Shown: positions 3,713 to 27,802 of the stretch, in pieces | Layout: the number at the start of each line of letters is the position of its first letter | Numbering within the stretch: position 1 is the stretch's first letter | Assembly: GCF_988243305.1 (NCBI RefSeq) | Contig: NZ_OZ547136.1 | DNA: 64,000 nucleotides | Reading direction: 5' to 3' (one strand) | Notes under the pieces: model-generated | Seen by the model: the letters and a program-made list of their open reading frames with translations, nothing else | Told to the model about the DNA's origin: nothing | Databases searched by the model: none | Program-made: the position numbers and the translations under genes

Positions 3713-5956
3713 TCAGGCACTTTCGCGAATGGGTTCGATTTCATTCAGCGTATCAATTAACGGTTGCGGCTTACCAATAAGATAACCCTGCATATAATCG
3801 ATCCCCAAAGAGAGCACCGCCTCGCGGATCTCTTCGTTTTCAACGTACTCTGCCACTACCCGCATTTTCTTCATTCGCGCCAGGTGGCAAATCGACGCCA
3901 CTATCTGATAATCCAGACTATTTGACACAATATTGCGGATAAAACTGCCGTCAATTTTAAGCAGATCGGCATTCACATTTTTAAGCCGCGCATAGCTGGC
4001 GTAGCCGGTGCCGAAATCATCAATCGCAATCTGGCAGCCTAATTCCTGAAGATGCTGCAAGGTGATTTGCGCCTGCTTAACATTGGTCAGAGCATTACTT
4101 TCGGTGACTTCAAAAATAAGTTGCCACGCTTCAATCTGATATTTAGCCAGCAGCTGACTGACTTCAACGGGAAAACGAGCCTGACATACCGAGGTTGGCG
4201 ACAGATTAATGGCAAAACGGTGAGCGGGCATCTTCGCTCTGTTTTCAGCCATAAATTGCAGCGTATGTTCAATGACCCACATGTCGATACTCGACGATAA
4301 ACCAAATTCGTGCGCGACCGGCAAGAAGCTGTCGGGGCTGATCAGTTCATCATTCTCACCTTTCATACGCAGAAGAATTTCATGGTAGACATCGCCACGC
4401 ATACCGGTAATCGGCTGGGCCATCAGGAAAAAATGGTTGTGTTCCAGCGCCTGCTGTAGCCGATTCATCATCGCGACTTTATCTTTCAATTCGCGTTGCA
4501 AATACATTGCCCCGCGACGCTGCATATTTTCCGGGGCGTTGGTCACGATGGAAAGCTCGGCGACCGTATTTAGCTCTCCCAGCAGCAGGTAGATATGATT
4601 CACTGGCGAGCGCACATAGCAGTAACTGACGCCAATCTGCGGTTGCATCGGCATTCCATCCCAAAAGAAACGAAATTGCTTGAGATGGCTATCCAGTGCG
4701 GTAATGCGCTCCTGGTGCGATTCTGTATTCAGTCGCAGCGCGAGATCGTTACCCGAAAGCTGATAAACATCTTCACCCGGTTCCAGCAAGGGTGACAGCC
4801 AGTGAGAAAGTTTTTGCTTGTATTGAATCCGTAGCATGATGCCATAGTTCTTAACCAGCATTTCCATGCCAGGGATGCGTAAATAACAAAGCGCAGACCA
4901 GGGGGCATCACGCAACGCGCGATTCAGGGCGCGAACATTTGGCAGATGAACTACCGGGTCCACATACGCAAGCCGCTGAATGCGTCTGACTACCGCTCTC
5001 TGACGGGTTGCCAGTACAGCCATATAATTGACAATAAAAGAGAATACCAGATAACTGGAGGAGGTTATGGTCAGCTGCGTGGTATAGCCAGGATAAATGG
5101 GAATGTAATTTTGATAGCTGTGGATGCTGATCATCAACACGACCGCCCAGAGCAGCGAAATCAGCTTATAACCATAGCGCATCGCTCCCCACATCATCAG
5201 GGGCAGCAATAATGACAAGGTATAGTTGGTGCTAAAAATTGTGCTTTTTTCATTTAACGGCATGCATAACAGCAGCAGTAAAGCACCTAATGCCAGTAGC
5301 CAGAGTGCGAACTCTTTTTTGGTGACTTTGACATCAACCTGCTGTTTTAATTGCGAATAATAACTACGTAAATAAAACGGATTTCGCACTACACGAATGA
5401 TGAAGTAGCACAGCGGGACACCAATCAGATTGCCCACCAGTAAGGCCTGATAATTGATTAAGGTCCCGAGGTTAAAAGGCATGACGCCGACCAGATTTTC
5501 TCTGCTCGCCAGTAATCCTACAAACGCAGCAAACTGGAAAAGTATCAGAAACAGCGTTGCAGGAAACACAATCTGCCAGAATATACGCTGGGAAATTAAA
5601 CGGGTATCACCATGTGAAACGTTGTTACGCCGGGGAGTAAAGACCCTGTAACCGCCCCAACAGAGAATGATAATGATAATAAAATTAGCCGTTAATGAGA
5701 GCGTTTCGTAAAAACCCAGCTCTGCATATTTGCGGACAAAAATCCCTAAGGCGATCCCTGGCAATGCCGCCCAGCTGAAAAACATCATCATGCTGATCAT
5801 CAGAGCCAGAGGCAGATAAAAGAGAAAAACCTCACCGGAAGAAATATGCGCGAAAGTATTAATGTGGGCGAAAATGGGCAAGATTAAAGAAGGCAGGAAC
5901 AGCGGAAGCCCCCACCATTTATCACGTATTTTTATATAAGTTGCATTCAGTTTCAT
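3713..5956 (-). CDS. pdeF: c-di-GMP phosphodiesterase PdeF (YfgF): MASE1 membrane domain, degenerate GGDEF, EAL
   Basis: 747-aa ORF with a strongly hydrophobic N-terminal half and a C-terminal EAL-type region; position and length match E. coli YfgF. Confidence 0.9.
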   Translation of the reverse strand: MKLNATYIKIRDKWWGLPLFLPSLILPIFAHINTFAHISSGEVFLFYLPLALMISMMMFFSWAALPGIALGIFVRKYAELGFYETLSLTANFIIIIILCWGGYRVFTPRRNNVSHGDTRLISQRIFWQIVFPATLFLILFQFAAFVGLLASRENLVGVMPFNLGTLINYQALLVGNLIGVPLCYFIIRVVRNPFYLRSYYSQLKQQVDVKVTKKEFALWLLALGALLLLLCMPLNEKSTIFSTNYTLSLLLPLMMWGAMRYGYKLISLLWAVVLMISIHSYQNYIPIYPGYTTQLTITSSSYLVFSFIVNYMAVLATRQRAVVRRIQRLAYVDPVVHLPNVRALNRALRDAPWSALCYLRIPGMEMLVKNYGIMLRIQYKQKLSHWLSPLLEPGEDVYQLSGNDLALRLNTESHQERITALDSHLKQFRFFWDGMPMQPQIGVSYCYVRSPVNHIYLLLGELNTVAELSIVTNAPENMQRRGAMYLQRELKDKVAMMNRLQQALEHNHFFLMAQPITGMRGDVYHEILLRMKGENDELISPDSFLPVAHEFGLSSSIDMWVIEHTLQFMAENRAKMPAHRFAINLSPTSVCQARFPVEVSQLLAKYQIEAWQLIFEVTESNALTNVKQAQITLQHLQELGCQIAIDDFGTGYASYARLKNVNADLLKIDGSFIRNIVSNSLDYQIVASICHLARMKKMRVVAEYVENEEIREAVLSLGIDYMQGYLIGKPQPLIDTLNEIEPIRESA

Positions 5957-6307
5957 AGATGCTCAGCAGAATCCCCCACATCCTGAAGGAGGTGTATTCA
6001 GACAGGCATCCCACCTGACTTCGAATGATGATTATTCATCACTATAGAGAGCATTGATTCTAAGTGTCATATGAAAGTTCCAATTGATATATATCAAACA
6101 AAATAACCCTGATTAATGAATTATTACGTTTATCATGTTAATTCATCATTATTACATCATCATTGTAAATAATTAAATTAACTTCCATAACATTAAAATA
6201 TGTATCCACTGACGCTTTTTTACATAACGAAGAATTGACCATTTTGTCCTGTTGTGCCTTAATGTAAGTACCGTCCACTGCGTGGGACATACTTCAAGGA
6301 ACCTTTT

Positions 6308-6499
6308 GTGAGTCAGGCAACCAGTATGCGAAAACGACACCGATTTAACAGTCGCATGACCCGTATCGTACTGCTCATCAGCTTTATCTTCTTCTTTGGC
6401 CGTTTTATCTACTCGTCCGTCGGTGCATGGCAGCACCATCAGAGCAAAAAAGAAGCTCAGCAATCCACACTCTCCGTCGAATCACCGGTACAACGTTAG
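6308..6499 (+). CDS. yfgG: small membrane protein YfgG
   Basis: 63-aa ORF MSQATSMRKRHRFNSRMTRIVLLISFIFFFGRF with a single hydrophobic helix; conserved position between pdeF and yfgH. Confidence 0.8.
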   Translation: MSQATSMRKRHRFNSRMTRIVLLISFIFFFGRFIYSSVGAWQHHQSKKEAQQSTLSVESPVQR

Positions 6500-6809
6500 C
6501 GGTTACCTTCTCCACTTTTACAGAACATAACGGCACCTCGCTGTCGGATGCTTTTGCTCTTTGGGATTATCAAAGCGGCAGATATTCTTTCATCTTAAAT
6601 TTTACGTCTTTGTCCTGACTGATGTTTATCCTGTTTGGCTGCGAAATAAATATAAAATTAACACATATATTTTAATGATGTATTTTTATAAATTATTTCC
6701 CACATGAATTTTAATAAATTTAATCTATTCCTTTATACGCAATACATTTACTTTCCTCTTTTGATGATCTTAAATATCTTATTTTTCGTAATGTGTATAA
6801 CAAGGAATA

Positions 6810-7328
6810 GTGATGAAATTTAAAAAATGTCTTCTGCCTGTGGCAATGTTAGCGTCATTCACTCTGGCAGGATGCCAGTCAAATGCTGATGATCATGCCG
6901 CCGATGTTTATCAAACCGATCAACTGAATACCAAACAAGAAACTAAAACCGTTAATATTATTTCCATTCTTCCCGCAAAAGTTGCCGTAGACAACTCCCA
7001 AAATAAACGAAACGCACAAGCCTTCGGCGCGCTTATTGGTGCAGTCGCTGGCGGTGTTATTGGCCACAACGTCGGGTCTGGCAGCAATTCCGGAACGACG
7101 GCAGGTGCAGTTGGCGGCGGAGCTGTTGGCGCGGCAGCGGGTTCTATGGTGAATGATAAAACCTTAGTGGAAGGTGTTTCTCTAACGTATAAGGAAGGCA
7201 CCAAAGTGTATACCTCCACCCAGGTGGGTAAAGAGTGCCAGTTTACGACAGGTTTAGCCGTTGTTATTACCACGACGTATAACGAAACGCGTATTCAGCC
7301 AAATACCAAATGTCCTGAAAAGAGCTAA
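6810..7328 (+). CDS. yfgH: outer-membrane lipoprotein YfgH (glycine-zipper)
   Basis: 172-aa ORF with a lipoprotein signal and lipobox (LAGC); Gly/Ala-rich glycine-zipper stretch GALIGAVAGGVIGHNVG. Confidence 0.88.
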   Translation: MMKFKKCLLPVAMLASFTLAGCQSNADDHAADVYQTDQLNTKQETKTVNIISILPAKVAVDNSQNKRNAQAFGALIGAVAGGVIGHNVGSGSNSGTTAGAVGGGAVGAAAGSMVNDKTLVEGVSLTYKEGTKVYTSTQVGKECQFTTGLAVVITTTYNETRIQPNTKCPEKS

Positions 7329-7343
7329 TAATCAGGAGGAGTC

Positions 7344-7883
7344 ATGAAGAAAGTTTTTCTTTGCGCCATCTTAGCCTCCTTAAGCTATCCGGCTATCGCC
7401 TCATCATTGCAGGATCAACTCTCTGCTGTCGCAGAAGCGGAACAGCAAGGTAAAAATGAAGAGCAAAGGCAGCATGACGAATGGGTCGCGGAGCGCAACA
7501 GGGAAATCCAGCAAGAGAAGCAACGTCGCGCAAACGCCCAGGCCGCGGCTAATAAAAGAGCGGCAACGGCAGCGGCGAATAAGAAAGCTCGTCAGGATAA
7601 ACTGGACGCCGAAGCCTCTGCGGACAAAAAACGCGATCAAAGTTATGAAGATGAGCTACGCAGCTTAGAGATTCAGAAACAAAAACTGGCACTGGCGAAA
7701 GAAGAAGCCCGCGTTAAGCGAGAAAACGAATTTATCGATCAGGAACTGAAGCACAAAGCTGCGCAAACCGATGTGGTGCAATCTGAAGCTGACGCAAACA
7801 GAAATATGACTGAAGGCGGTCGCGATCTGATGAAAAGCGTGGGCAAAGCAGAAGAGAACAAATCGGACAGCTGGTTTAATTAA
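7344..7883 (+). CDS. yfgI: YfgI, coiled-coil periplasmic protein
   Basis: 179-aa ORF with signal peptide and an Ala/Gln/Lys/Glu-rich low-complexity region; RBS AGGAGG 6 bp upstream; 15 bp downstream of yfgH. Confidence 0.88.
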   Translation: MKKVFLCAILASLSYPAIASSLQDQLSAVAEAEQQGKNEEQRQHDEWVAERNREIQQEKQRRANAQAAANKRAATAAANKKARQDKLDAEASADKKRDQSYEDELRSLEIQKQKLALAKEEARVKRENEFIDQELKHKAAQTDVVQSEADANRNMTEGGRDLMKSVGKAEENKSDSWFN

Positions 7884-7921
7884 TCGATGTAAGTAACTTC
7901 AAGCCTATAATTCTTGAAGAT

Positions 7922-7954
7922 AAAAAACCCTCTGTAGTAACAGAGGGTTTTGTT
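7922..7954 (+). terminator. Rho-independent terminator downstream of yfgI
   Basis: Stem ccctctg(7928-7934)/cagaggg(7941-7947), 6-nt loop, followed by ttttgtt; an A-run precedes the stem, so it could act bidirectionally. Confidence 0.7.
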
Positions 7955-8210
7955 CATTCATAGTGCAGGGATCAAAATCATTCCCACTCAGCTATCAATG
8001 AGAAAATAAAATATAAATAAATCAATGCCTTGAAACAAACCACTTAGCAGATACCACGAAAAATACCATGTCTCAATAATAGAGCTGTCTACAGGCTGTT
8101 CAGACGAACAATATGGCCGCTCTACTCCTAATAGAGTCCTTAGCTCGGTCACATCACTAATTTCAACATAGATGTGAACAAAATGAGGCATCAACGCACC
8201 TATTCAGTTA

Positions 8211-9725
8211 GTGTATTTGATATCGTATGTGGCAACAAAAAATGGAGTTACAATCTTGAAAGTAAGCGAGTTATCTAGCCAAATTGGCCGACTTTACGGC
8301 TTAAACAACATCAACATAATTATGGGCCGAAACGGTGCGGGAAAAAGTCGTTTCCTTCGTGATATCGAACAAACAATCAGCCAGAACAAGCAGCAATTTT
8401 ATGTCCGGTATGTAAGTCCAGAGCGAGCAGGATCGTTCAAGCGTGATGGCACCGTCCTCACAAATATGAGCGACAACCCCGAATGGCTGAGGCACACTCG
8501 GGCAGTTAATCAGGCAAGCAACTTCAAAGCTGCATCGGCTATGCTATTTCGCGAGGCCGAGACGCTTTACTTACGTCGACTTGCCAATACTCCGGAAATT
8601 CGAACTGATCTAACGCGAAACTTTCAGACAGACCGATTAAGTAAAATTAATCAGCTTCTCACTAACATTTCGCTCGAGATGGGTAATGTCGATTATGAGT
8701 TTCGATCACTTGTAGATGGTCAGATTATTGATCCGGCCCAAATCAGTAGCGGTGAATCGGAAGCGGTTGCATTAGCCGCGGAAATCATCTATTTCTTCGA
8801 CACAATAGATCCGGAGAAATTCAACGTACTCCTCCTCGATGAGCCTGATGTACATCTGCACCCCGACCTCCAAGCTAGACTGGGCAAGCTGATAATCAGT
8901 ATGCTCGACGAATTTAGAACACACGCGAACAGTATTGCCATATGCTTATCCACCCATAGTTCCCCGCTCGTCTGTTCTCTTGCCGCCTCCCCATATGTAT
9001 CAATCGGCACGAAGAGCTTTGCAGTGAATGAAATCTCATTGATACCGGCCAGCGATGAACTTCGAAAGATTGCACCATTCTTCGGGCACCCCCTATCGCT
9101 TTCTCTTAGCGAAGACGCTGCATTAATTTTGGAAGGAGAGGACGACGAACGAGTCTGGCAACAAGCGGCCAGAACATCACAGGGTCGAATAAAAATCTTT
9201 CCCGTACTAGCAGGTAGCGTAGATCAACAGAGTCAACTTGAGGATTTTTGCGTAGACCTCCTTAGTACACTCTATGACAATCCAATCGCCTTTTCCCTTC
9301 GTGATGGCGATGGTGTAATCAACGAGTCGCTTGAACATCGCCTACCTCTTAAACGCTATCGCTTACGATGCTACGCTATCGAAAATGTTCTTTTGACTGA
9401 TTCATGCCTTGCAGTAATGAATGTTACATGGGTGGAATTTGTAGACGCAGCCAAAAAATGGGTTGAGGATAATCAAACACACTCCGACATAGCGTTGATT
9501 GCAGAACTAATGGAATCGAACGACCGATTGCGTCACAAGAAGATCAAGAAAATCCGCCAACTCGTCTGTGCTATTGTTGAGTGTAAAAAACCTTGGGAGG
9601 TAGTAGTTGGACAAGCAATCGGGGCATTGACCAGAGAAGACCTTGAAAACTCGAATATGTTGATCGATTTTCTTGGAGGAGAGATGGTCAGCGACGTCAT
9701 CTTCAGGGACGCAATAAACCCATGA
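8211..9725 (+). CDS. ABC-type ATPase (AAA_21/AAA_15-like) fused to a TOPRIM/DUF4435-like domain; OLD/PARIS/Gabija-like candidate defence nuclease
   Basis: 504-aa ORF. Walker A GRNGAGKS (8325-8348), ABC-signature-like ISSGESEAV (about 8742-8768), Walker B/D-loop VLLLDEPDVHLHPD (about 8836-8877), H-loop LSTHS. C-terminal region has ILEGEDDERVW (about 9125-9157), a DxD motif FSLRDGDGV (about 9291-9317) and YAIENVLL (about 9371-9394), consistent with an OLD-type TOPRIM/DUF4435 fold. The likely true start is the TTG at 8256, which has a GGAG Shine-Dalgarno 8 nt upstream; 8211 is an upstream in-frame GTG with no RBS. The locus is AT-rich. Confidence 0.6.
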   Translation: MYLISYVATKNGVTILKVSELSSQIGRLYGLNNINIIMGRNGAGKSRFLRDIEQTISQNKQQFYVRYVSPERAGSFKRDGTVLTNMSDNPEWLRHTRAVNQASNFKAASAMLFREAETLYLRRLANTPEIRTDLTRNFQTDRLSKINQLLTNISLEMGNVDYEFRSLVDGQIIDPAQISSGESEAVALAAEIIYFFDTIDPEKFNVLLLDEPDVHLHPDLQARLGKLIISMLDEFRTHANSIAICLSTHSSPLVCSLAASPYVSIGTKSFAVNEISLIPASDELRKIAPFFGHPLSLSLSEDAALILEGEDDERVWQQAARTSQGRIKIFPVLAGSVDQQSQLEDFCVDLLSTLYDNPIAFSLRDGDGVINESLEHRLPLKRYRLRCYAIENVLLTDSCLAVMNVTWVEFVDAAKKWVEDNQTHSDIALIAELMESNDRLRHKKIKKIRQLVCAIVECKKPWEVVVGQAIGALTREDLENSNMLIDFLGGEMVSDVIFRDAINP

Positions 9726-9740
9726 GAATGACCTGATACT

Positions 9741-10136
9741 ATGACCACGATTGATCCGCCCTCATGGTATCAGTATTTATTTTATAACCCGCCTCTCAAT
9801 ACACCAAGAGATTGCGGTAAAGTGGAGCAGCATGATTACCAGCTTTATCTGGCGATAAATGATATTGAGCATACGAAAACGAAAGCAATGTCATCTAAGA
9901 CCAATAGTATCTGCGAGCAGTTCCATAAAACGATACTGAACGAGTTTTATCAGGTGACGTTCCGCAAAAAGTTATATGATGATCTTGAAGCATTACAATC
10001 GGTTCTTGATGAATGGCGGGTTCACTATAATAATGAGCGAACCCATCAGGGAAAAATGTGCAGTGGCCGAACGCCGATGGAAACGTTACTTGATGGAAAG
10101 CACATCTGGGATGAGAAAAACTTAAGCCAGATGTAA
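9741..10136 (+). pseudogene. truncated DDE (rve/integrase-core) transposase remnant, 3' end only
   Basis: 131-aa ORF whose C-terminal ~85 aa (KTNSICEQFHKTILNEF...YNNERTHQG...GRTPME) match the C-terminal part of integrase-core DDE transposases (IS481/IS3-like), including the catalytic-E region. The N-terminal DD part is absent and the first ~50 aa look unrelated. It begins 16 bp after the ATPase stop. Confidence 0.55.
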
Positions 10137-10229
10137 TCTGACAGATACCTTTATAAATAGCCGGTAATTGTCAGATCAGGTCTGATCTTATACAACTTAA
10201 CTGTGTTATGAGCAATACTGAGGATAGAT

Positions 10230-11000
10230 ATGGAACCAGAGAAATTTGCTGAAACTGCAATAGGATTTACCAAAAGCCCTCTTGGTATCATTGCACTCTT
10301 TATTGTTCTCGTTTATGGATTTGCCTCTTTCGTCGTTGGCTTTGGTAATGGCTTATCAGAGCATATAGCTCCCCTTATTTATTTCATGGTTTTCTTTCCT
10401 GTCATTGTGTTTCTTGGCTTTCTCTGGCTTGTTGCGAAACATCATAATAAGCTTTACGGGCCGTCAGATTTCAAAGATGAAAATAATTTTTTAAGAGCGC
10501 AAATAGCTACAGCAGCATCATTGACCGCCGCCACAGCAAAACAGCCTGAAAATAGTGCAGGGGTCACTGAAAGCCAACTGCGAAAAATCGTCAACGTTGT
10601 ATCCAATGCAAAACGGCAGAGTAAGCATGAAAAATGGCGAAATCGTATTTTATGGGTGGATGATCGACCAGAAAATAATGTTTACGAAAGACAGGCATTT
10701 GAGGCACAGGGAATAGAGTTCGCTTTAGCTCTTTCAACTGACGAAGCCTTAGAATTGTTAAAAACAAATAAGTTTGCAGCTATTATTTCGGATATGGATC
10801 GCAAAGAAGGGGCGCAAGAAGGTTATGTCTTACTAGAAAGATTACGCGCAATGGGAGACAAAACTCCTTTTATGATCTATGCGTCCTCAGATCTACCAGA
10901 GCACAAGAAAATGGCGAGAGAAAGAGGTGCAATTGGCTCCACTAATCGAGCAGAAGAACTCTTTCAAATTGTCATGGGTGCGATTACCAATGGCTCATAA
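10230..11000 (+). CDS. membrane-anchored protein with C-terminal CheY-like receiver (REC)-like domain
   Basis: 256-aa ORF with SD GAGGA upstream. Two predicted TM helices (IIALFIVLVYGFASFVVGF; LIYFMVFFPVIVFLGFLWLV). The C-terminal ~120 aa follow a (beta-alpha)5 pattern with receiver-like acidic positions: ILWVDD at the end of beta1, AIISDMD at the end of beta3, FMIYASS at the end of beta4. The beta5 lysine is not obvious. Confidence 0.45.
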   Translation: MEPEKFAETAIGFTKSPLGIIALFIVLVYGFASFVVGFGNGLSEHIAPLIYFMVFFPVIVFLGFLWLVAKHHNKLYGPSDFKDENNFLRAQIATAASLTAATAKQPENSAGVTESQLRKIVNVVSNAKRQSKHEKWRNRILWVDDRPENNVYERQAFEAQGIEFALALSTDEALELLKTNKFAAIISDMDRKEGAQEGYVLLERLRAMGDKTPFMIYASSDLPEHKKMARERGAIGSTNRAEELFQIVMGAITNGS

Positions 11001-11214
11001 CAAAGCCATTAAATTCGCCCCCTACGGCTACGGTTGCCGGGCGCTCACAACGGCCAGTATCTCATTTGTCGATTTGATCGATCTCATTGTAAGCACTTCC
11101 GGCTAGACTATTTTGGAATACCGCCATTTTGTTGGTAATGGCTTTTATCTTTAGGCCATAGCCGATGTTATAGAGTTACGGCCTTAAAAATAGAAGTCAT
11201 ACACTCAATGAAAA

Positions 11215-11250
11215 ACCAATAAAAAATGCCAGTCAGCAAACTGACTGGCA
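11215..11250 (-). terminator. Rho-independent terminator downstream of guaA
   Basis: Inverted repeat tgccagtcag(11227-11236)/ctgactggca(11241-11250) with loop caaa; on the minus strand it is followed by a U-run (complement of the A-run 11211-11226). Confidence 0.7.
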
Positions 11251-11294
11251 TTAAAGTTAGTTGGAAAGGCTTAATTTACTATTTATAGCCAGTC

Positions 11295-16004: not shown

Positions 16005-19000
16005 TTACTGGAAGCAGGTCACCAGACCCGGTTTATTCATTAGCGTGATACTACAATCCTGTGCTCCAGTGCCTTCGTCCATTCCACACTGTTGAGAGGA
16101 CAAATAAGGAAAACTTGGTGAAGACGGCCATCCCAGTGAATTAAAAACAGTGTGCAACAACTCTAATTCATTGTATGTCGGTGCATTTTCTATGCTGCCA
16201 CACTGCCTTGCAATATCCCATTTACTGGCATCAATGATATGTGCAGAAGCCCAGTTTTCGTAGTTAATAATCGGTGAGGATACGGGATTAGCCCCGGACG
16301 GCAATTCTGTCGTTAACAACGGTCGATGTAGCGATTTACCATTCACCACTACAGTGTCTGCCATATGTCCCCAAAAGTGCGCCGAGGAAACATTCGGGCT
16401 GGTTGGTACCGTAAAAATAGCGTCCAGCGTGTCTGTCGCGGAAGCGTAATTAGCCAGAGTAACCGTCAGTGGCGTTTTATAACCAGGGGTATTATCCTGG
16501 CGGAGCGTAAAACTTGCCGTCCCATCCGCGCCTGTCATGCCACTAATGGTATTACCGCTTTCACTCAGCGTAACAGCCGAACCAGATAACGGCTGAACGA
16601 TGAGATCGTCCATCGCCACCACATCACCATACAACGTCGCCCCAGCGTTACGCGGCGATGCATCGCCACGTTTCAAAGTAAATTCCACATTCGGTACCGT
16701 ATTCCCGGCGCTGTCTTTCACCGTCACGGTAACGGGCATGGCTTCGCCTTTTTTCACTTTCGCCGCCTGAATAGCTGCGTCAAACGCTGTTGAGGTCAGT
16801 GTGACGCTGGAAACCGTTGCGCGCGCAGACACCAGACACGCCTGATAAGCGGCATTACCATTCAATGTCGTTGTGCCATCTTTCATATTGAGCGACTGAT
16901 TTTTACCATCTGTAGTCTTATCCTGCGCCCACCAGTAATAATAAACTGACCAGCCAGTTTCCGTCGTAAGGGTGTTATTGGGATAACGTTGATACAGTGA
17001 CTTCATATCGCTGAGCAACGGTTGCCGGGCTTCCTCACAAGGGCTGAGGCTGGCATTTGCTTTAGTGGTTGACGAAAAATAGGGCCAGTCCTCATTATTG
17101 TTATTGGTTTTATTTACCCCGGAGGTCGATGGCAGCTCCTTCCACAATTTCGGTCGTTCAAAGACGGTTCCATTTGCCGCTGTCACCGTTTCTGGCATAT
17201 GACCCCAGTAGTCGGCATCCTGGGCGTCAGGGCTGGTGACCACGGTAAATATCAGGTCCAGGTTTGACGTGATCTGCGGATCTTGTGCAAGCGAGACCGT
17301 AAACGGCGTTGCCAGGCCGGTGGTGGCGTTTTGCGTAACATTGAACGTCACTGTGCCATCACTGCCGGTAAAACCAAGCCATTTTGCCGTATCCTGAGCA
17401 AAGGAAATACGGGTTGCTGTCGGTGTGACGACATCTACAATAAGATCATCTGCCAACGATGAGGGCCTAATTCCTGAACGACTTTTCGCCTGCGCCCGCT
17501 GAAGCGTCACGCCCTCACCACTCACCAGGTTGCCATTTTGGTCTTTTACTGTCACGACTAACGGGATTGTCTCGCCCTTTTTCGCCGATGCCGAAGGTGT
17601 GCCGCCGTTACTGGCGGTTTTCGTCTCATCAAATGCTACTGAAGTCAGGGTAACGCTTGACGGCTTAGAGTGAGGCTGTGCCAGGCAGAGCATTAGAGCA
17701 ACCGGAGAGAGTGCGGATGATGCTCGTCCCGTGCTTAGGTTAAAGACCTGATAATACCAGGAGCTACCATTGGAGTTAAGTAATTCATAAATCCACCAGT
17801 TTCCTGACGCTATCGGCAACCCCAGATCTTTCGTTAACGCTCCGTTTGGGTGATCGTCATATAACCCCTGCAATTCGCTGAGGCGCGGTTGATATTCCAG
17901 CGAACAATCTGCCGTCGCTTTTTGAGTACTATATATATATGACCATGTCTCATTATTACCGTTTACCGAGCTCCCCGTAGTCGCTTCCGCTGCCAGTAAT
18001 GGGCGCTTGAAGGTCACGCCTGCCGAACTGGTAAACGTTTCCGGCATATGGCCCCAGTATTTCGCTTTTGGCGAATCCGGGCTGGTTATCACCGTGAAAA
18101 TGACATCCAGCGTGACGCTTTTCGAGGTATCGCGCATGAGTTCTGCGCTGAGCGGCGTTGACAGCCCATAACTGCTATTCTGGCTGACCTCAAACGTAGC
18201 TTTACCATCGCTCCCTGTCTTCAGAAGAGCCTGCGTCCCATCCCCATACAAGATTGACGTTACCCCAGTAGGTTCCACAGGTATGATGGTAAGATCATCT
18301 GCAGAGGCATCGTACGCAGCTTTAGCGCGGTTCAGCGCAGTCCCTCGTTTAAGGTTAAAGCTGGCACCTGGCAGTGGATTGCCTGCGCTATCTCGCACCG
18401 TAACCGTCATCGGGATAACCTCTCCCTTCTTCGCTGTTGCGCTGGGCCTGCCATCATTGCTGGCCGTTTTCGTTGCATCCTCCGCCGTTGAGGTCATTTC
18501 AATAGAAGCCGCCTCTGGATGAGGGTTTACCAGGCACAGCATTAATGCCGAGGTGGTTGAAGACGCTCTTCCACTTGATCCATTTAACAGATAAATATAT
18601 TGATCGTACCAGTTACCCGCATATGCCACCATGTCGTAAGCCCACCAGTAGCTATTTACCGGAATACCCAGATCGGTCTTTATCGCACGACTTGGGTGTT
18701 CGTCGTACAATGCCTGTAGTTCGCTTAACAGTGGTTGATAATGTACATCGCACCCGCTTTTATCGATATCCCCCTTTGTTGCCGATCTCAACACGGCCCA
18801 CTCTTCATTGTCTTCTATAAACGACTGGCCCGACGATCTTTCAGCAGAGAGTAAGGGGCGTTTGAAGGCAGTACCAGAACGCGTAGTGAACGTTTCCGCC
18901 ATATGCCCCCAGTAACTTGCCAGGGGGGTATCCGGGCTGGTTATCACGGTAAACATCACGGGTAATTTGTTGGATTCCAGGCTCGACTGATAGGCCTGAG

Positions 19001-22000
19001 CGTACACATTGGTTACCAGGCCTATAGAATCATCCTGCTTTACCGTAAACGTGGCTGTCCCGTCTGCACCTGTCACCGCATAAAGGGAGATTGATGGAGT
19101 ATCCACTCTTGCCGACGTTCCCGCAGCGTTGATTACAGAGATAGTTCTGTTCGACAACTGTACATTCTGGCGATTTGTCGATCCTTCACGTTTGAGAATA
19201 AACGGAACATTTGGTACGACATTTCCCTGCGCATCTTTTGTCACCACGCGAATCACCGCGTCGTCACCTTTTTTCCGTTTTAGTGCGCTGAGGGTTTCGT
19301 CAACTTTGACAAATTGTGTCGCATCGTTCGCTTCAACAATAATGTGGCTGGTCACCGCCACTGGGGTAGCCCGACAACTTAGCAGTCCTATACTGCTTGA
19401 CATGACCTCCGTTCCATCACCCGTTTTTAACGAAACCGCTTTAAAATTAAATGTTTGAGTGTAATAGGCAACAACCGTACTGGAGATATAGGCGCGTGAT
19501 ACAGGCCATCCCGTAACGTCATGTATTGGCACGTAACCTTCATCGGCATACAGTGACTCCAGCTCACTTTCAATCGGGACATATCCTGCACCGCAACCAT
19601 TTACAGATGTGTTGTTCGACTGGTCCGGCGAGAACAGTGACCAGCTCTCTCCATCTTCCTGAAAAGAGCTTCGACTGGTTGTAACGGAAAGCTCATCTTG
19701 CAATAACGGTCTTTTATAAATAAGCCCGCCTGCACCGGTCATCGTTTCGGCCATATGCCCCCAGAATTTTGCTTTAGGGGTATCGGGGCTGGTTATCACC
19801 GTAAAGACTACCGGAAGCATTGATTTTACGTTATTATCTGTATCCAGCATGGCGGTCAGTTCGGTTTTTAAACCCGTGGTATTGTCCTGTTTCAGTGCAA
19901 GTGTTGTCGTACCATCTGCGCCGGTAACGCCATAAATCAGTGCTGTTGTTGAGGAAAAATTACTCTGCGTGTTACCCCAGGCATCCGTCACGATGAGCGC
20001 GCCTGCTGTCACCGTTGTAGACGCATTTGCCCGATTGACGCTAAGGTTACGTTTAAGCGTAAACGCGGTATTTCCCACCGGGTTACCCTGCGAATCTTTA
20101 GTGGTCACGCGAACCACGACTTCTTCCCCTTTTTTCGCTTTGACAACATTATTCGTACTGTCAAATTTTGTGGGGTCCGCAGCCTCAAGAACGATTTGGC
20201 TAGCCTTGACGATCGGCGTCGTCTGGCAGGTAAGCAGTTCTTTTGTGGCCGATGGAATTATCGAACTGGTGCCTGAACTGAGATTGACGGCCTTGAAGTC
20301 ACGCTGTTCCAGACTACTGCTGGCTGTCGTGCTGGTAAGGTAACTTGAGGCGACGGGCCAGCCCTGAACCGTTTTCATCGCATTGCCACGGTTGGCTTCA
20401 TACAATGACTCCAGCCCGGCCTGAGAGGGAACATATTCACTACCACAACCATTAGAGGATGTGCTTGTCGCCTGAGTTTGGGTAAATTGCGCCCAGTCCT
20501 CATTATCTTCTGCAATCGCTGTTCGACCCGACGTACTGGATAACTCTTTCAACAATAATGGGCGTTTAAAGACCGTTCCATCCGCAGCCGTCACCGTTTC
20601 CGGCATATGCCCCCACATTTTCGCTTTATTGCTGTCCGGGCTGGTGACAACGGTAAAAATGGTATCGAGGGTCGCTTTTTTCGTTGTGTCTGAATAGAGC
20701 GCAGCGGTCAGCGACGTTTTTGTGCCATGGGTATCCGGGCGGGTAATAGTGAGAATTTTAGTGCCATCGCTGCCGGTCATCGCGCTGTATGCTGCGGCGG
20801 TATCATTGAGCGAAGTTTCATCCGCCAGGCCACTATTGATCACAACCGGCGCAACCAGCGCATCACCGCTACCGGCAATGTGTTTTTCGTTTGATCGTGT
20901 ATAACCATCGCCACGCTTCAGGGTAAAAGGCATATCACCCAATGGATTGCCCTGAGCATCTTTTACCGTCACCTTCACCTGTAGCGTTTCGCCTTTTTTC
21001 AGCTTCGCCGCATTTGCTGCCGCGTTCCACTGCGCCGGGTCCACCACTTCCAGCGTAATGCTGCTGGCAGGATTGTTAGCCGTCGTCAGGCAACTGACAT
21101 AAACCGCCGTGCTACCGCCAACGGTCCGCGCGCCATCGTTGAGGGCTATGGTGTAGTAATGCGGCACCTGATCCGCGGGCGAACTGCTCCAGTAGGGCTG
21201 ACGCTGCGTTGGCCAACCGTGTACCGTTTGAACGGCGTTACCGCTGTTAGCATCATAGAGCGCGTTAAGCTGGGAACGGCGTGGGAGCATATTGGCACCA
21301 CAGCCACCTTTACTGGTGCTGGAAGTGTTGGCCTGGCTAACGCGCGACCACACTTCGTTATTTTCCGTTAATGTGCCGTCCGGGCTGGACACTTCCGCAG
21401 CCAGCCGGGGTCGGGCAAAGGTTAATGCATCGACGGTAATCGTCTCATCCATATGCCCCCACATCTGCGCGCCAACCGCATCCGGACTGGTGAGCGTAGT
21501 GAAAATCACATTGTAATTAACAGTATTGGGAATATAGGAGTTTACAGGCGCAATATTCAGCGGCGTCGCTAAGCCCACACCTTGCGGTTGCTTAATTTCA
21601 ACAGTAGCAAAACCCTGCGCATCCGTAGTACCTGCATAGACTAAAGACGGTTGCGATGTTCCGTAGAGCGTGCCATTCATCTCGATTGCGCCGCGGGTTG
21701 GATCATCGAAACCCGTGGTCTGCCCCTGACGATTTTTCCCCATATCTTTCGTGATGGTGAACGCGGTATACGGCACGGGCGCATTATTCAAGGCATTAAA
21801 GGTGCGTACCGTCATGGTAATCGTTTCACCCACTTTAGCCTGCGCTCTGCTGCTTGTGGAAACATCATGATCGGTGTTCGCAGCAATCTGGGCGACCATC
21901 TCATTGCCCGAACAAGAAAGGTAGTTTTGCTTAAAGCCGGAATAGGTGTCGATGTTGCCCGTGGCCAGGTTCACCGACGCGTGCGACGTCTCTTCCACCG

Positions 22001-24047
22001 CACTAAGATACGCTTTTTGCAACGTTGGCCAGCCATATTCGGTGCCGATGACATTGGCTGGATGTGCGGCAAACAAACTGTGCAATGAGCTTTGGCTCGG
22101 AATATGACCTAAACCACACTCAGCCTGCATACTGCTATTCTGATCAAACAGCGCCCAGTCTTCGTTATTTTCCCGCACTGCTCCCAGTTCGTTGTCGGTT
22201 TCATCCGCCAGCCGTGGGCGTTTAAAGATATTATTCGCTTCAATAATGCCTAACATATGTCCCCACATCCGCGCTTTGTCGGAATCAGGGCTGGTGATCA
22301 CCGTAAAAATAACGTCTTTCTCATCCGAGGCGGTAAAATCACTGCGCATTTTCGCGGTGATGTGTGTTTTCACCCCCACGCCGCCTGGCTGGGTCAGCGT
22401 CAGAGAGGCCTCTCCGTTAGCATCAGTGATCCCTTCATAGGTATGGGCGTCAACTTTGCGAACGTTACTGCCACCATCAATTTGTACCGGGTGCGTCTCC
22501 CACGCAGCGTCAGTTTGATTCTTACGGTTAACACCGTCATCCAGATGCAGCGAAAAGTAGTAGTAAGCCAGCGGCTGATCGTTGTTCTTGCTATCGGTAA
22601 TCGTCAGGCGTAAAGAAGCCTCTTCCCCCACCTTTACTTTCATCGCTTTTATCGTCGAATCATAACTGCCCGGCGTCAGTACCAGCTTCGGTTCAACATC
22701 GGGCGCTTCTTTATCGACACAGCTCACAATAAACGTCGTATCGTCCGGTTTTTGCGCTTCGCTGCGGTTCGAAACATCCGCCGCATGGTGCTGGCCACTC
22801 ATCCCCGCCAGTGATGACCAGTAGAAATTACCCTGCATCGGCCAACCAGCCACATCCTGCACTGACGTTGGCACCACCGTCGCCAGCGCACCGAACTGAC
22901 GCATTCCGGGCAAAATGTCGCAATGTTTATCCGCGCCGCTCCAGGTAAAGGTGGACCAGGTTTCATTGTGATCGTTAACCGTACCGTTTTCATTATCGAC
23001 TTCCGCCGCCAGTTTTGGTCGACTAAAAGTGTAATCACGGGCCTTCAGCGTATCGGGCATATGACCCCACATTGTAGCCTGCGGGACATCCGGGCTGGTG
23101 AGGACGGTAAAGATCACTGCCGTTTCACTGGCCTGAGCAATACCCGCGAGGCTCGCGACCAACGGCGTTTTTACACCAAGGCCGTTGGCCTGGGTGACCG
23201 TAACCGTGGCAACACCATTCGCATCGGTAGTACCACGATATTCCGTCGCGGTGGTGGTTAATTCGGTCGTGCCCAGTTTTACCGGCGCAGTATTGTTCAC
23301 TACACCCTGGCGGTTTTCAGCATCTTTGCGTTTGATAACAAAAGGAATATTCCCCACAACATTACCGACGCAATCTTTGGTGGTGACCGTTAACGTGATA
23401 CTGCCGCCAACCGTCGTTTTCGCCGCACCGGAGGATTCGTCATAGCCCGCGGCGCTGACGGAAATAAGGTCACCCTGCGCGGGCGCAATCTTCAGCGTCA
23501 CTTTCTGATCGGCGAGCGTCAGAACACTTTCATAGGGATAGCCCGTCGAGGTGAGTAAATATAACAGCGGCATGGTCTGTTGGGGATCAGGCTGCGCCCA
23601 GGCGACCAGCGAACGCCCGGCAAGTCCCTGAGCGCAAAACGAGCGATCTGCGACTGGCTGTGGGTCCAGTAAGGTGTCCGGCGTCGCGGCATCCGCCCAA
23701 ACTAAAGATACTGTCGGTGGCGTTTGGTTTTCCCAACGTGGGGTGGAAATGATATCGCCTTCTCTGTCTTGCGGATTGGTGACGAGCAATTTAGAGACGC
23801 TAATATCCGCGCTGAATTCACTCGGTTTAGCGGTAAACGCTACCTCATGCGTCTTTGCAGGATCCAGAAAGACACTGCCCTGGTAGACGGGTATGCTGGC
23901 ACTGTCGGCGGTGGGCACGGTACCGTTAAATTCGCCGACCGTATCTGAAGAGTCTTGCCATGCAGATTCTGCCCATGACCGCCCAGGCAGCATTGCGCTT
24001 ATCAGCAATGCGCATAACACAAGGATTTTATTCAGGGTCAGGGACAT
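16005..24047 (-). CDS. ratA: RatA-like giant secreted/outer-membrane repeat protein (Big_1-like Ig domains)
   Basis: 2680-aa ORF with signal peptide [26 protein letters not shown]. Nine copies of a ~200-aa module, each with a Big_1-like segment (KKGE..v.VTVKD..GNpv.n..FtLKR) and a conserved IFTVxTSPD....WGHMxET motif. Sits with sinI/sinH between xseA and yfgJ, like the Salmonella CS54 island. Confidence 0.8.
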
Positions 24048-25199: not shown

Positions 25200-27377
25200 T
25201 TATTTTTTGGTATACAGCACGCGTAAACCGTATCCCTGCAAGCCATCTCCCGCTTGTGCGCCATAGGTTTGCGCTGCTTCGCGGTTAGTGGCCGGAATCA
25301 CAATGTCCTCATTGGAAGTGTTCGCCTGTGCACCCACTTCACCATTGATGCTCTTGCCGGTAAATTCCCACTTGTAGTCGTACTGCGCCATCTCTTCGTC
25401 AGTCAGTTTTTCGACCTGCTGGAAGACACCGTCTTTATTGCTGTCACGCCACAAAACAAATCGATAAGTGTTGTTGAGCGGCAGCGGTTCTTTATCTTTA
25501 CCTATCAGGTTGCTGGGTTTAGCTGCCCCCACACGATAGATAAATGCATTTAGCCCACCAATTTCTGCCCCGAGGAAAGTGACATCCACATAGTTACTGT
25601 CGTCGTAGGGCGCAGCTTTTGCTTTCCAGCGATAGGTGCCGGGTAAGGTACTGGAGAGGGTGACAGTGCCCTTTTCTTTATCTTGTTTAGCGATAAAAAC
25701 GCAGGGGTTGTCGGTCGAGCAAGGCTTGTTGGTTAACGTCACTCGTTTGTCCTGCGCGTCGTAAAGCTGCGGCGTGAGGTTATCTTCCGGCAGCGCATCG
25801 CCATTGCGGTCGGTGTTATCGCCAAAGCTGTCGGTTACATCGAGATCCATCACCACACCATCAACGCCATCTGCCTGAGCGCTGGCTTCGTGGCTGTGGT
25901 TGTTCTCTTCCGGCACGTTCGCGATGTTATTAACAATCAACTCTATTTTACGGTCCTGCTGAACGGTGATTTCCACCACGCCAGAGTTCTGTCGGTTGCC
26001 CTTTTCATCTTCCAGTGCCAGACGTACTCGCCAGGTATTGAGTTTTTCTTGTTCGGCTTTGTCAGAGCTGTACTGCCAGGCGGGCAGCACCAGGTTCCAG
26101 TGGTTATTGTTACCCTCTGTCAGGGTATTCTCTTTGATAACCGGCATAACCAACGTGCGGGCAGCATTGTTTTTCGCCTGCCATGACGCAGCGACAATTT
26201 TGTAGTGGTGGTTGATAAGCGCGTTAATGGTCCACTTACATTTTTCCAGCCCGACGGCCGCTTCGGGAGTGTCCTTAATGACGCACTCAGGGTGCTCGTT
26301 GGTGGCATCCGCTTTTAACCACAGGGTGACATCAAGCGGATCTTTTTCTTTGTATTCCAGAACAATAAAGTTATTACGCTCAACAAAATCATGACGACTG
26401 CCCATCAACGAGTGAGCCGCTTTCACTTTATCGCTATCCAATTGATCTTTTAGCGGAACGCCGAACTGATAATTAAGAGTGGCATTAATGCTGACATCGC
26501 TGTTATCTCCGGTCCCCGCTTTATAGTCCGCCCCAACGGTTAGTAATGGCACCGGTTGATAATTCAGTCCAAGTGTTACCGCGTAGGGATCTTTCTCCAA
26601 ATTATCCGTACCAAAAAGGGCGACTTCATCGCCGTAATATTGCTCGAAGACAACTTTGCCCCCCAGTTGCGGATAAGAAGGTAACCAGGCTTCGGCACGA
26701 ATATCCCAGCCGCGCGCAGGGCGTTCTTCATAAAAGCCGAAATCTTCAGAGTCTTTCCAGTCAGAAAGCGGATGATAATAGTTGCCAGAGAATTTTAAAT
26801 AATCAGTCCACGCTTCGCCGCCTAAACCTAAACGGCGATGTCCTCGGGTAAAATCATAATCATAAAATACATTTCCACCCAATAACCATTCATTAAAATT
26901 ATGTCTTACCCCAAGACCAATATTCCCGATTGTACGATCTTCTTTTCGTTGCGCAGAAAATTGACTGAAATAAACAGTGGTTTGATTATCGTACCAGGGA
27001 ACAAAATAATCGATGGAACTGCCATCCAGATCGCCGCCCTGGCCAATGGAGAGGTTCGAACGGACCTTACCGTAGGGAGAGAGAGTGTCTTCAATATAAG
27101 ATTGTGCGGTTGAGATGATTTGACTTTGCAGATAGCTTCTGGCCTGAGATTCCAGCGCCTCAGGGGTCAAGTTTTCAAACCCTTGCGTGGCGGAGTTGAT
27201 GACGTAATCGGCTCCGCGCTCTTTCAGCGATTTACCCTTGTTGGTTTGTTCATCCCGCTGTGCTGCCTGGCTACCTAAATCAGGTAACGATTCGTTTTGC
27301 TTAACATTTATCTCTGGTGCCGCGAAAGCAGCACCAGAGATAAATGTTAGAATAATACAGCGTTTCCATCGCAGCAT
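25200..27377 (-). CDS. sinH: SinH-like intimin/invasin-family inverse autotransporter
   Basis: Track ORF 25200..27407 starts at a TTG. The ATG at 27377 (MLRWKRCIILTFISGAAFAAP, signal peptide) has an AGGGAAAG SD-like sequence upstream. The N-terminal half has the intimin/invasin beta-barrel signature region (GLGVRHNF...NVFYDYDF...GGEAWTDYLKFSGNYYHPLS...LNYQPVPLLTVGADYK), followed by Ig-like passenger domains. Confidence 0.8.
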   Translation of the reverse strand: MLRWKRCIILTFISGAAFAAPEINVKQNESLPDLGSQAAQRDEQTNKGKSLKERGADYVINSATQGFENLTPEALESQARSYLQSQIISTAQSYIEDTLSPYGKVRSNLSIGQGGDLDGSSIDYFVPWYDNQTTVYFSQFSAQRKEDRTIGNIGLGVRHNFNEWLLGGNVFYDYDFTRGHRRLGLGGEAWTDYLKFSGNYYHPLSDWKDSEDFGFYEERPARGWDIRAEAWLPSYPQLGGKVVFEQYYGDEVALFGTDNLEKDPYAVTLGLNYQPVPLLTVGADYKAGTGDNSDVSINATLNYQFGVPLKDQLDSDKVKAAHSLMGSRHDFVERNNFIVLEYKEKDPLDVTLWLKADATNEHPECVIKDTPEAAVGLEKCKWTINALINHHYKIVAASWQAKNNAARTLVMPVIKENTLTEGNNNHWNLVLPAWQYSSDKAEQEKLNTWRVRLALEDEKGNRQNSGVVEITVQQDRKIELIVNNIANVPEENNHSHEASAQADGVDGVVMDLDVTDSFGDNTDRNGDALPEDNLTPQLYDAQDKRVTLTNKPCSTDNPCVFIAKQDKEKGTVTLSSTLPGTYRWKAKAAPYDDSNYVDVTFLGAEIGGLNAFIYRVGAAKPSNLIGKDKEPLPLNNTYRFVLWRDSNKDGVFQQVEKLTDEEMAQYDYKWEFTGKSINGEVGAQANTSNEDIVIPATNREAAQTYGAQAGDGLQGYGLRVLYTKK

Positions 27378-27586
27378 GCACTTTCCCTGTGACAATGATA
27401 CAGTCAAAAATAAGCTTTAATATTGTATCCCTGATTATTCAGAAAGGCATGTCATAAAGAATAAATATATTCTTAATTATTTAAATTAGTGATTTCACTC
27501 AATTACATTAGTTATTCCACTAATAACAGATTGTTTTACCATTCACATATTAAATATAAATGATAAAACAATATATTCACATGATA

Positions 27587-27802
27587 TTAAGCAATAACAA
27601 ATTCAACGCGTTTTTTAGATATTAAACCGTGCCCATGTTGGCAAAAATAGTCCACAGCACCACAAGCTTTTAACACTTGTAACGGCTGATGACACTCAGG
27701 GCAAAGTGCCTGGACGGTAAAGTCTTTGTCGCAAGTTGCACAGTGGGCAGTCTCGCCATTGCGTTCGAGAGGGGTTTTGCAGATTGGACAGTTGAGTGCC
27801 AT
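27587..27802 (-). CDS. yfgJ: zinc-ribbon protein YfgJ
   Basis: 71-aa ORF with two CxxC pairs (CPICKT...CATC and CPECHQ...CQHGH). Confidence 0.85.
   Translation of the reverse strand: MALNCPICKTPLERNGETAHCATCDKDFTVQALCPECHQPLQVLKACGAVDYFCQHGHGLISKKRVEFVIA

Follow-up and report, generated by a model that had tools for sequence, protein, structure and literature searches.

The AT-rich yfgG-yfgH intergenic region of Escherichia coli, an H-NS-bound region with the probable promoter of the stress-inducible, horizontally derived yfgHI operon

The yfgG-yfgH gap and its composition

The window analysed here, a stretch of 64,000 nucleotides of contig NZ_OZ547136.1 (assembly GCF_988243305.1), contains pdeF (also known as yfgF; minus strand, 3713-5956), yfgG (6308-6499), yfgH (6810-7328) and yfgI (7344-7883), in an arrangement colinear with K-12 b2503-b2506. 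The bounds of the gap between yfgG and yfgH are exact, with yfgG ending at 6499 and the annotated GTG start codon of yfgH at 6810, and the K-12 counterpart (NC_000913.3, 2629482-2629791) is also 310 bp long. The stretch 6300-6900 is present in 5420 of 5426 complete E. coli genomes. The regions to which the analysis refers are the following:

5957-6307, no strand assigned: pdeF/yfgG divergent promoter region, GC 34% with a core of 27%, in the same H-NS domain
6500-6809, no strand assigned: yfgG-yfgH intergenic region, 310 bp, GC 30.0%
6500-6629, plus strand: 3' flank of yfgG, moderate GC (40.8%), with a weak hairpin
6630-6746, no strand assigned: distal AT core, GC 21.4%, with fast sequence turnover and kept composition
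6813-7883, plus strand: yfgH and yfgI operon, encoding a glycine-zipper outer membrane (OM) lipoprotein and a DUF5384 protein

The gap had been singled out for its AT-richness and its A/T tracts, and both are borne out. Its GC content compares with 51.3% for the whole window, in which only 0.4% of the 310-bp windows are equally AT-rich, and it is the lowest among 22 intergenic gaps of at least 80 bp (a crudely defined set), the median of which is 45.3%. The baseline of 50% GC assumed for E. coli intergenic DNA in the original prediction was therefore too high, the intergenic median in this window being 45%. Composition is uneven within the gap, with 40.8% GC at 6500-6629 and 22.2% at 6630-6809; the minimum of the 64-kb window for GC over 180 bp (18.9%) starts at 6644, and 28% GC or less over this length is seen in just three segments of the window. 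Nine homopolymer runs of at least 4 nt and seven A/T-only runs of at least 8 nt (the longest of 18 nt) are found in the gap, and TpA accounts for 14.5% of the dinucleotides versus 4.5% window-wide. A search for repeats yielded short chance repeats only, with neither REP elements nor IS remnants. The remaining other segment with 28% GC or less over 180 bp lies at 27371-27662.

In the part of the gap adjacent to yfgG, a weak hairpin at approximately 6553-6582, which is followed by a U-rich stretch, could act as a leaky yfgG terminator; the fold of 6495-6640 has a z-score of 0.20, so that the structure is not significant. The orthologue alignment revealed no homology to 6500-6629 outside Escherichia.

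Variable distal core and conserved proximal block

Orthologous loci were collected from E. whittamii, other Escherichia, two Citrobacter, another Enterobacteriaceae, Pseudocitrobacter, Kluyvera and Pantoea; E. albertii, E. fergusonii, Salmonella, Serratia, Xenorhabdus and a second E. coli copy were added later. Nucleotide diversity (pi) in the Escherichia sample is 0.012 for the proximal 64 bp, 0.153 for the distal AT core and 0.089 for 6500-6629, with values of 0.022-0.044 for the flanking coding sequences, so that the turnover of the distal core is approximately fourfold that of the flanking genes. Outside Escherichia, no conservation was detected in the orthologue alignment upstream of about -70. 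Composition is kept all the same: the 200 bp located 5' of yfgH homologues have 21-32% GC in 16 of 17 other contexts (among them Escherichia spp., Citrobacter, Pseudocitrobacter, Kluyvera, Pantoea, Salmonella and Xenorhabdus, as well as the second E. coli copy and the copy of phage P7), and the AT-richness persists next to genes other than yfgG and pdeF and in spite of a 1.5-kb insertion. The sole exception is Serratia, with 49.5% GC in surroundings of approximately 53-61%. Composition that is kept without a kept sequence is what would be expected if an AT-rich H-NS platform were selected for or persistently inherited, and the fast divergence of the distal core agrees with the faster divergence that Higashi 2016 (PMC4720273) described as general in H-NS-bound upstream regions. 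The 6630-6746 segment is the best candidate for the platform on which H-NS would nucleate and from which it would spread.

Close to yfgH, four features were delineated:

6747-6754, plus strand: TTTACTTT, conserved across genera, which includes the -35-like TTTACT at 6747-6752
6770-6775, plus strand: TTAAAT, a -10-like hexamer 17 nt after TTTACT
6802-6815, plus strand: Shine-Dalgarno sequence AAGGAA (6802-6807) and start codons
6690-6820, no strand assigned: moderate intrinsic curvature predicted with a wedge model, centred on the candidate promoter

In 10 of 11 taxa the TTTACTTT block has a position of -65 to -67 relative to the ATG, the nominal -70 of C. amalonaticus being due to a misplaced ATG anchor; in Kluyvera it reads CTTACTTT. 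Approximately 15 nt past it, the 11 taxa have a (T)TAAAT-like hexamer and then TAACAAGGAAT-AGT-ATG; TTTACTTT, TTAAAT and the Shine-Dalgarno sequence are common to the Escherichia species sampled, Citrobacter, Pseudocitrobacter and Kluyvera. The phage P7 copy retains TTTACTTTCC upstream, and TTTACTTT is also present 5' of P7 upf50.5. The TTTACT-17-TTAAAT pair, the position of which is kept in the 11 taxa, matches the consensus at 8 of 12 positions, which places it under the threshold of the promoter scan, and has no A at -11. This pair would form a weak sigma70-type promoter with a predicted transcription start at approximately 6782, and a 5' UTR of approximately 30 nt is implied, since cross-genus conservation is confined to the approximately 70 bp before the ATG. 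Alternatively, TTTACTTT at 6747-6754 could be an activator site. As for translation, yfgH more likely starts at 6813, with a conserved ATG that AAGGAA precedes by 5 nt, than at the annotated GTG (6810), in place of which three Citrobacter-group genomes have GTA and Kluyvera has GTT.

The sequence TTTACTTTTGGTTACAT located upstream of ompF, which corresponds to the OmpR F1 site, starts with the same 8 nt as TTTACTTT, an identity checked in K-12. An OmpR site at TTTACTTT is a tentative lead at most, with a second half-site that is not conserved and an unfitting geometry. No match was obtained to the RcsAB box (up to 4 mismatches) in 6500-6830 or to the IHF pattern in 5900-6900. The sigmaE pattern (up to 3 mismatches) gave weak matches only, at 6546/6547 on the plus strand and at 6760 on the minus strand, the PhoP box gave two weak and non-conserved matches in the hypervariable core, and the CpxR box gave two in the distal part, again weak; all of these matches lack credibility. 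The conserved block of approximately 70 bp (6747-6812) narrows the search for the OM-stress regulator of yfgHI.

H-NS occupancy, expression and competing explanations

Two sites of the gap were compared with the H-NS high-affinity motif TCGATAAATT (tCGATAAATT) reported by Lang et al. 2007:

6685-6694, plus strand: TTTATAAATT, 8/10 match to the motif
6711-6720, plus strand: TTAATAAATT, second 8/10 match to the motif

They amount to two matches in 180 bp versus 1.4 per kb window-wide, and 8/10 matches are commonly expected in AT-rich DNA.

The binding of H-NS that had been predicted from the AT-rich pattern is upheld by published occupancy data. In the MG1655 ChIP-chip data of Myers 2013 (PMC3688515, Table S3), an anaerobic H-NS region of 2134 bp (2626274-2628408) and an aerobic one of 4563 bp (2624400-2628963) are listed. 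The coordinates are those of U00096.2, with an offset to U00096.3 of approximately 1977-1985 that was anchored on the FNR site TTGATATATATCAA; the gap corresponds to approximately 2627505-2627814, and each region encloses the whole of it with hundreds of bp to spare. The two regions are of the 'extended (>1 kb)' class, for which a negative correlation with RNAP occupancy was found (Myers 2013, PMC3688515). In the ChAP-seq data of Higashi 2016 (PMC4720273, S2 Table), yfgH is H-NS-bound, also after exclusion of genes bound at the 3'-end only, the flag being a gene-level one for which binding in one of three strains suffices; the yfgHI transcription unit is bound as well, and yfgH is predicted to have been transferred horizontally (class L/N). 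Searching the Higashi 2016 supplements by coordinate returned nothing for this region. By gSELEX, the adjacent yfgF/yfgG spacer was identified as an H-NS site (Shimada 2014), and the supplements of that work contain no yfgG, yfgH or yfgI entries.

Expression of yfgH is low and inducible. The preprint that describes YfgH as an OM glycine-zipper lipoprotein (10.64898/2025.12.22.696046) cites an estimate of approximately 7 copies per cell in LB and reports that CRISPRi of lpxC, lptD or bamA heavily induces yfgH, and that of thiL does not. The low basal level and the induction by stress thus support the proposal that yfgH is silenced or stress-regulated; the locus is H-NS-bound and expression is not constitutive. 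H-NS would be the cause of the low expression. With respect to RNA polymerase, the anaerobic sigma70 ChIP-seq list of Myers 2013 (PMC3688515) has a strong yfgF/yfgG peak (2627279, height 11933) and no peak within the gap; similarly, yfgF/yfgG is listed and yfgG>yfgH is absent in the gSELEX data for RpoD holoenzyme. A weak FlhDC gSELEX peak attributed to the yfgG>yfgH spacer was discarded, the stated site sequence lying in the yfgH coding sequence. In the case of SdiA, the E. coli yfgHI reporter has been reported not to be regulated and the S. Typhi orthologues to be regulated.

The very AT-rich gap lies within H-NS-bound chromatin and is therefore probably an ordinary silenced, stress-inducible promoter region of a horizontally derived operon, already catalogued as H-NS-bound, rather than a long RNA leader. 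As to how it works, we consider it fairly likely that yfgHI is silenced within the H-NS domain and induced by OM stress through the proximal block. The domain, of 2-4.6 kb, would span the 5' part of pdeF, yfgG, yfgH and yfgI, and the tract of approximately 180 bp with 78% AT would share one H-NS filament or bridged domain with the AT-rich pdeF-yfgG gap approximately 500 bp away. The predicted weak core promoter (TTTACT, 17 nt, TTAAAT), approximately 30-65 bp 5' of the ATG, would be near-silent in normal growth and would be turned on by defects in LPS or OMP biogenesis, with the conserved proximal block as the likely point of action of a putative activator or counter-silencer. With the H-NS-silenced promoters of bgl, proU, hilA/SPI-1 and LEE, the yfgHI gap shares an AT- and TpA-richness beyond that of the genome, a location within an H-NS region of more than 1 kb, near-silent but inducible expression, a predicted horizontal acquisition and, as in H-NS-bound upstream regions in general (Higashi 2016), a divergence faster than that of the surroundings. 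Unlike H-NS-silenced recent islands, yfgHI belongs to the near-universal E. coli core (5420/5426 genomes). YfgH is also a member, like SlyB, of the glycine-zipper 2TM superfamily, and both contribute to OM stabilisation under stress. However, slyB is PhoP-activated, well expressed and not induced by the lpxC, lptD or bamA knockdowns, and no convincing conserved PhoP box was found 5' of yfgH by alignment and motif scan. A poorly studied OM-stress operon of recent interest is hereby placed in H-NS chromatin, the significance being mainly one of annotation.

The alternative that survives best is that the AT-richness is a passive legacy of horizontal acquisition and AT-biased mutation, with H-NS being incidental and a weak promoter that needs an activator sufficing to account for the low expression. 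The fourfold faster evolution of the distal core with respect to the neighbouring coding sequences, its lack of any sequence block conserved across genera and the weakness of the hexamer pair (8/12) would be in keeping with it, and no differential-expression table of Myers 2013 lists yfgH. However, an upstream GC content of 21-32% is kept across unrelated contexts and genera in spite of complete sequence turnover, where the intergenic median is 45%, and extended H-NS regions, as a class, correlate negatively with RNAP occupancy. By taking both sets of observations into account, this explanation appears unlikely.

The gap had also been called a long leader, a label that is probably wrong: the blocks conserved across genera are found only within approximately 70 bp of the ATG and resemble a core promoter. 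The bulk of the AT-rich DNA is therefore 5' of the likely promoter and would not be part of a transcribed leader. A true long 5' leader would require a start far upstream and an AT-rich RNA under post-transcriptional control (as an sRNA target, through a leader peptide or by attenuation). The promoter scan did return TTAACA-17-TATTTT at 6658-6686 on the plus strand, with a score of 9/12, and small ORFs are present at 6561-6707 and 6704-6823. However, the 6658-6686 site is part of the hypervariable segment, and already K-12 has a different -35 there, promoter-like sites show no enrichment (5 found versus 4.1 expected), an Rfam search of 5500-8500 gave zero matches even at E<=1, and folding is no better than that of shuffled sequences (z 0.20 for 6495-6640 and 0.89 for 6780-6860), in addition to the confinement of conservation to the last 70 bp or so. 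The small ORFs were rejected as leader peptides, having no Shine-Dalgarno sequence and not being conserved outside Escherichia. A long leader is thus highly improbable.

The original prediction had further associated the AT-rich pattern with curved DNA and with binding of Fis. Curvature was calculated with a wedge model (ratio of 0.45 for a phased-A6 control) using the wedge parameters of Bolshoy and Trifonov. For 6690-6820 the end-to-end/contour ratio is 0.858, a value in the top 0.4% of the window that 2.6% of mononucleotide shuffles attain. With a rank of 20-40% in the window, the distal AT core is unremarkable, and no positioned bend is common to the orthologues, so that curved DNA is at most a weakly supported claim, limited to a moderate predicted bend at 6690-6820. 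The Fis 15-bp core (G-N3-W-rich-N3-C) had no match in 5900-6900 with either a strict or a loose pattern, and the Fis part of the proposal finds no backing. An activating upstream element, in which the A/T tracts would serve as an UP element or as curved DNA or Fis-dependent activator, as in rRNA and tyrT promoters, is more improbable still: the candidate promoter is at the centre of the moderate predicted curvature and the DNA directly 5' of its -35 is AT-rich, but yfgH is hardly expressed in rich medium, the condition in which Fis is at its maximum, Fis-like consensus sequences are lacking in 5900-6900, the gap has no sigma70 ChIP peak and the position of the curvature is not conserved among orthologues.

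Mobility of yfgHI and neighbouring regions

YfgH and YfgI have full-length matches to phrog_1277 and phrog_1094, respectively. Phage P7 carries a homologous pair, upf50.5/upf50.0, between immI and the tail-tube operon, and homologues of yfgHI are also found in the P1-like phages SJ46 and RCS47. In E. fergusonii, in Salmonella and at a second E. coli locus the pairs adjoin tail-fibre or TAP genes. The taxonomic distribution is patchy, and yfgHI has been reported to be absent from S. Typhimurium and present in S. Typhi. The operon is a mobile envelope cassette of two genes that was acquired horizontally, from a phage or plasmid-phage, and the link to P7 and to prophage ends suggests both the source of the operon and the reason for its silencing. 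The label 'DNA methyltransferase' of phrog_1277 is clearly wrong for a lipoprotein, a mis-annotation that has apparently spread into RefSeq phage records.

A more specific proposal, which we put forward as a tentative one and consider less probable than not, is that yfgHI is a domesticated phage 'moron' that takes its own AT-rich, H-NS-silenced promoter along to each new location, with the invariant proximal block around TTTACTTT as the putative site of an envelope-stress activator, which would counter-silence H-NS upon failure of LPS or OMP assembly. As with morons of the lambda bor/lom type, the homologous P7 pair upf50.5/upf50.0 is inserted between phage operons, and the moron-like copies (P7 and prophage ends) have a lower GC content and an AT-rich upstream region. 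Unlike phage morons, the chromosomal E. coli yfgHI is outside any recognisable prophage, although it flanks the yfgI-guaA hot spot. If correct, the moron reading would define a portable silencer/counter-silencer module common to phages and the E. coli core genome.

The yfgI-guaA junction itself is a hot spot for insertions: it is empty in K-12 and carries a prophage in ECCNB12-2 and in the TL-2011b record. In the window it is filled by an islet of approximately 3.4 kb (7884-11294), which is found at full length in 27 of 5426 E. coli genomes. It encodes a 504-residue AAA_15/AAA_21 ATPase (8211-9725), the best PADLOC matches of which are PDC-M01A, AriA, PtuA and GajA, along with a 256-residue receiver-domain protein (10230-11000) and an integrase-core remnant. 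Possibly, 7884-11294 is a small islet devoted to defence in a hot spot of integration.

On the other side of yfgG, the pdeF/yfgG spacer contains a perfect FNR box (TTGATATATATCAA, 6084-6097). In Myers 2013 (PMC3688515), the yfgF/yfgG FNR peak rises from 0.35 to 1.68 (approximately fivefold) when hns and stpA are both deleted; Table S6 of the same work gives NAP 'None' at the FNR site 2627088, although it is inside the anaerobic H-NS region. Both E-sigmaS and PgrR bind this spacer in SELEX experiments. In several genomes, PGAP annotates within it a hypothetical coding sequence of 50 residues (6138-6290, minus strand), which could be an annotation artefact of the AT-rich DNA.

IS5-family insertions strike the AT-rich neighbourhood around yfgG. 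In strain E5 (NZ_CP104521.1, 1873-2853), ISKpn26 has taken the place of yfgG and of most of the gap, its end lying approximately 120 bp 5' of yfgH, and in a gallium-evolved K-12 an IS5 insertion is located in the yfgF/yfgG spacer at 2,629,042. Elsewhere in the window, two giant ORFs are present on the minus strand, of 2680 residues (16005-24047) and 1653 residues (39307-44268).
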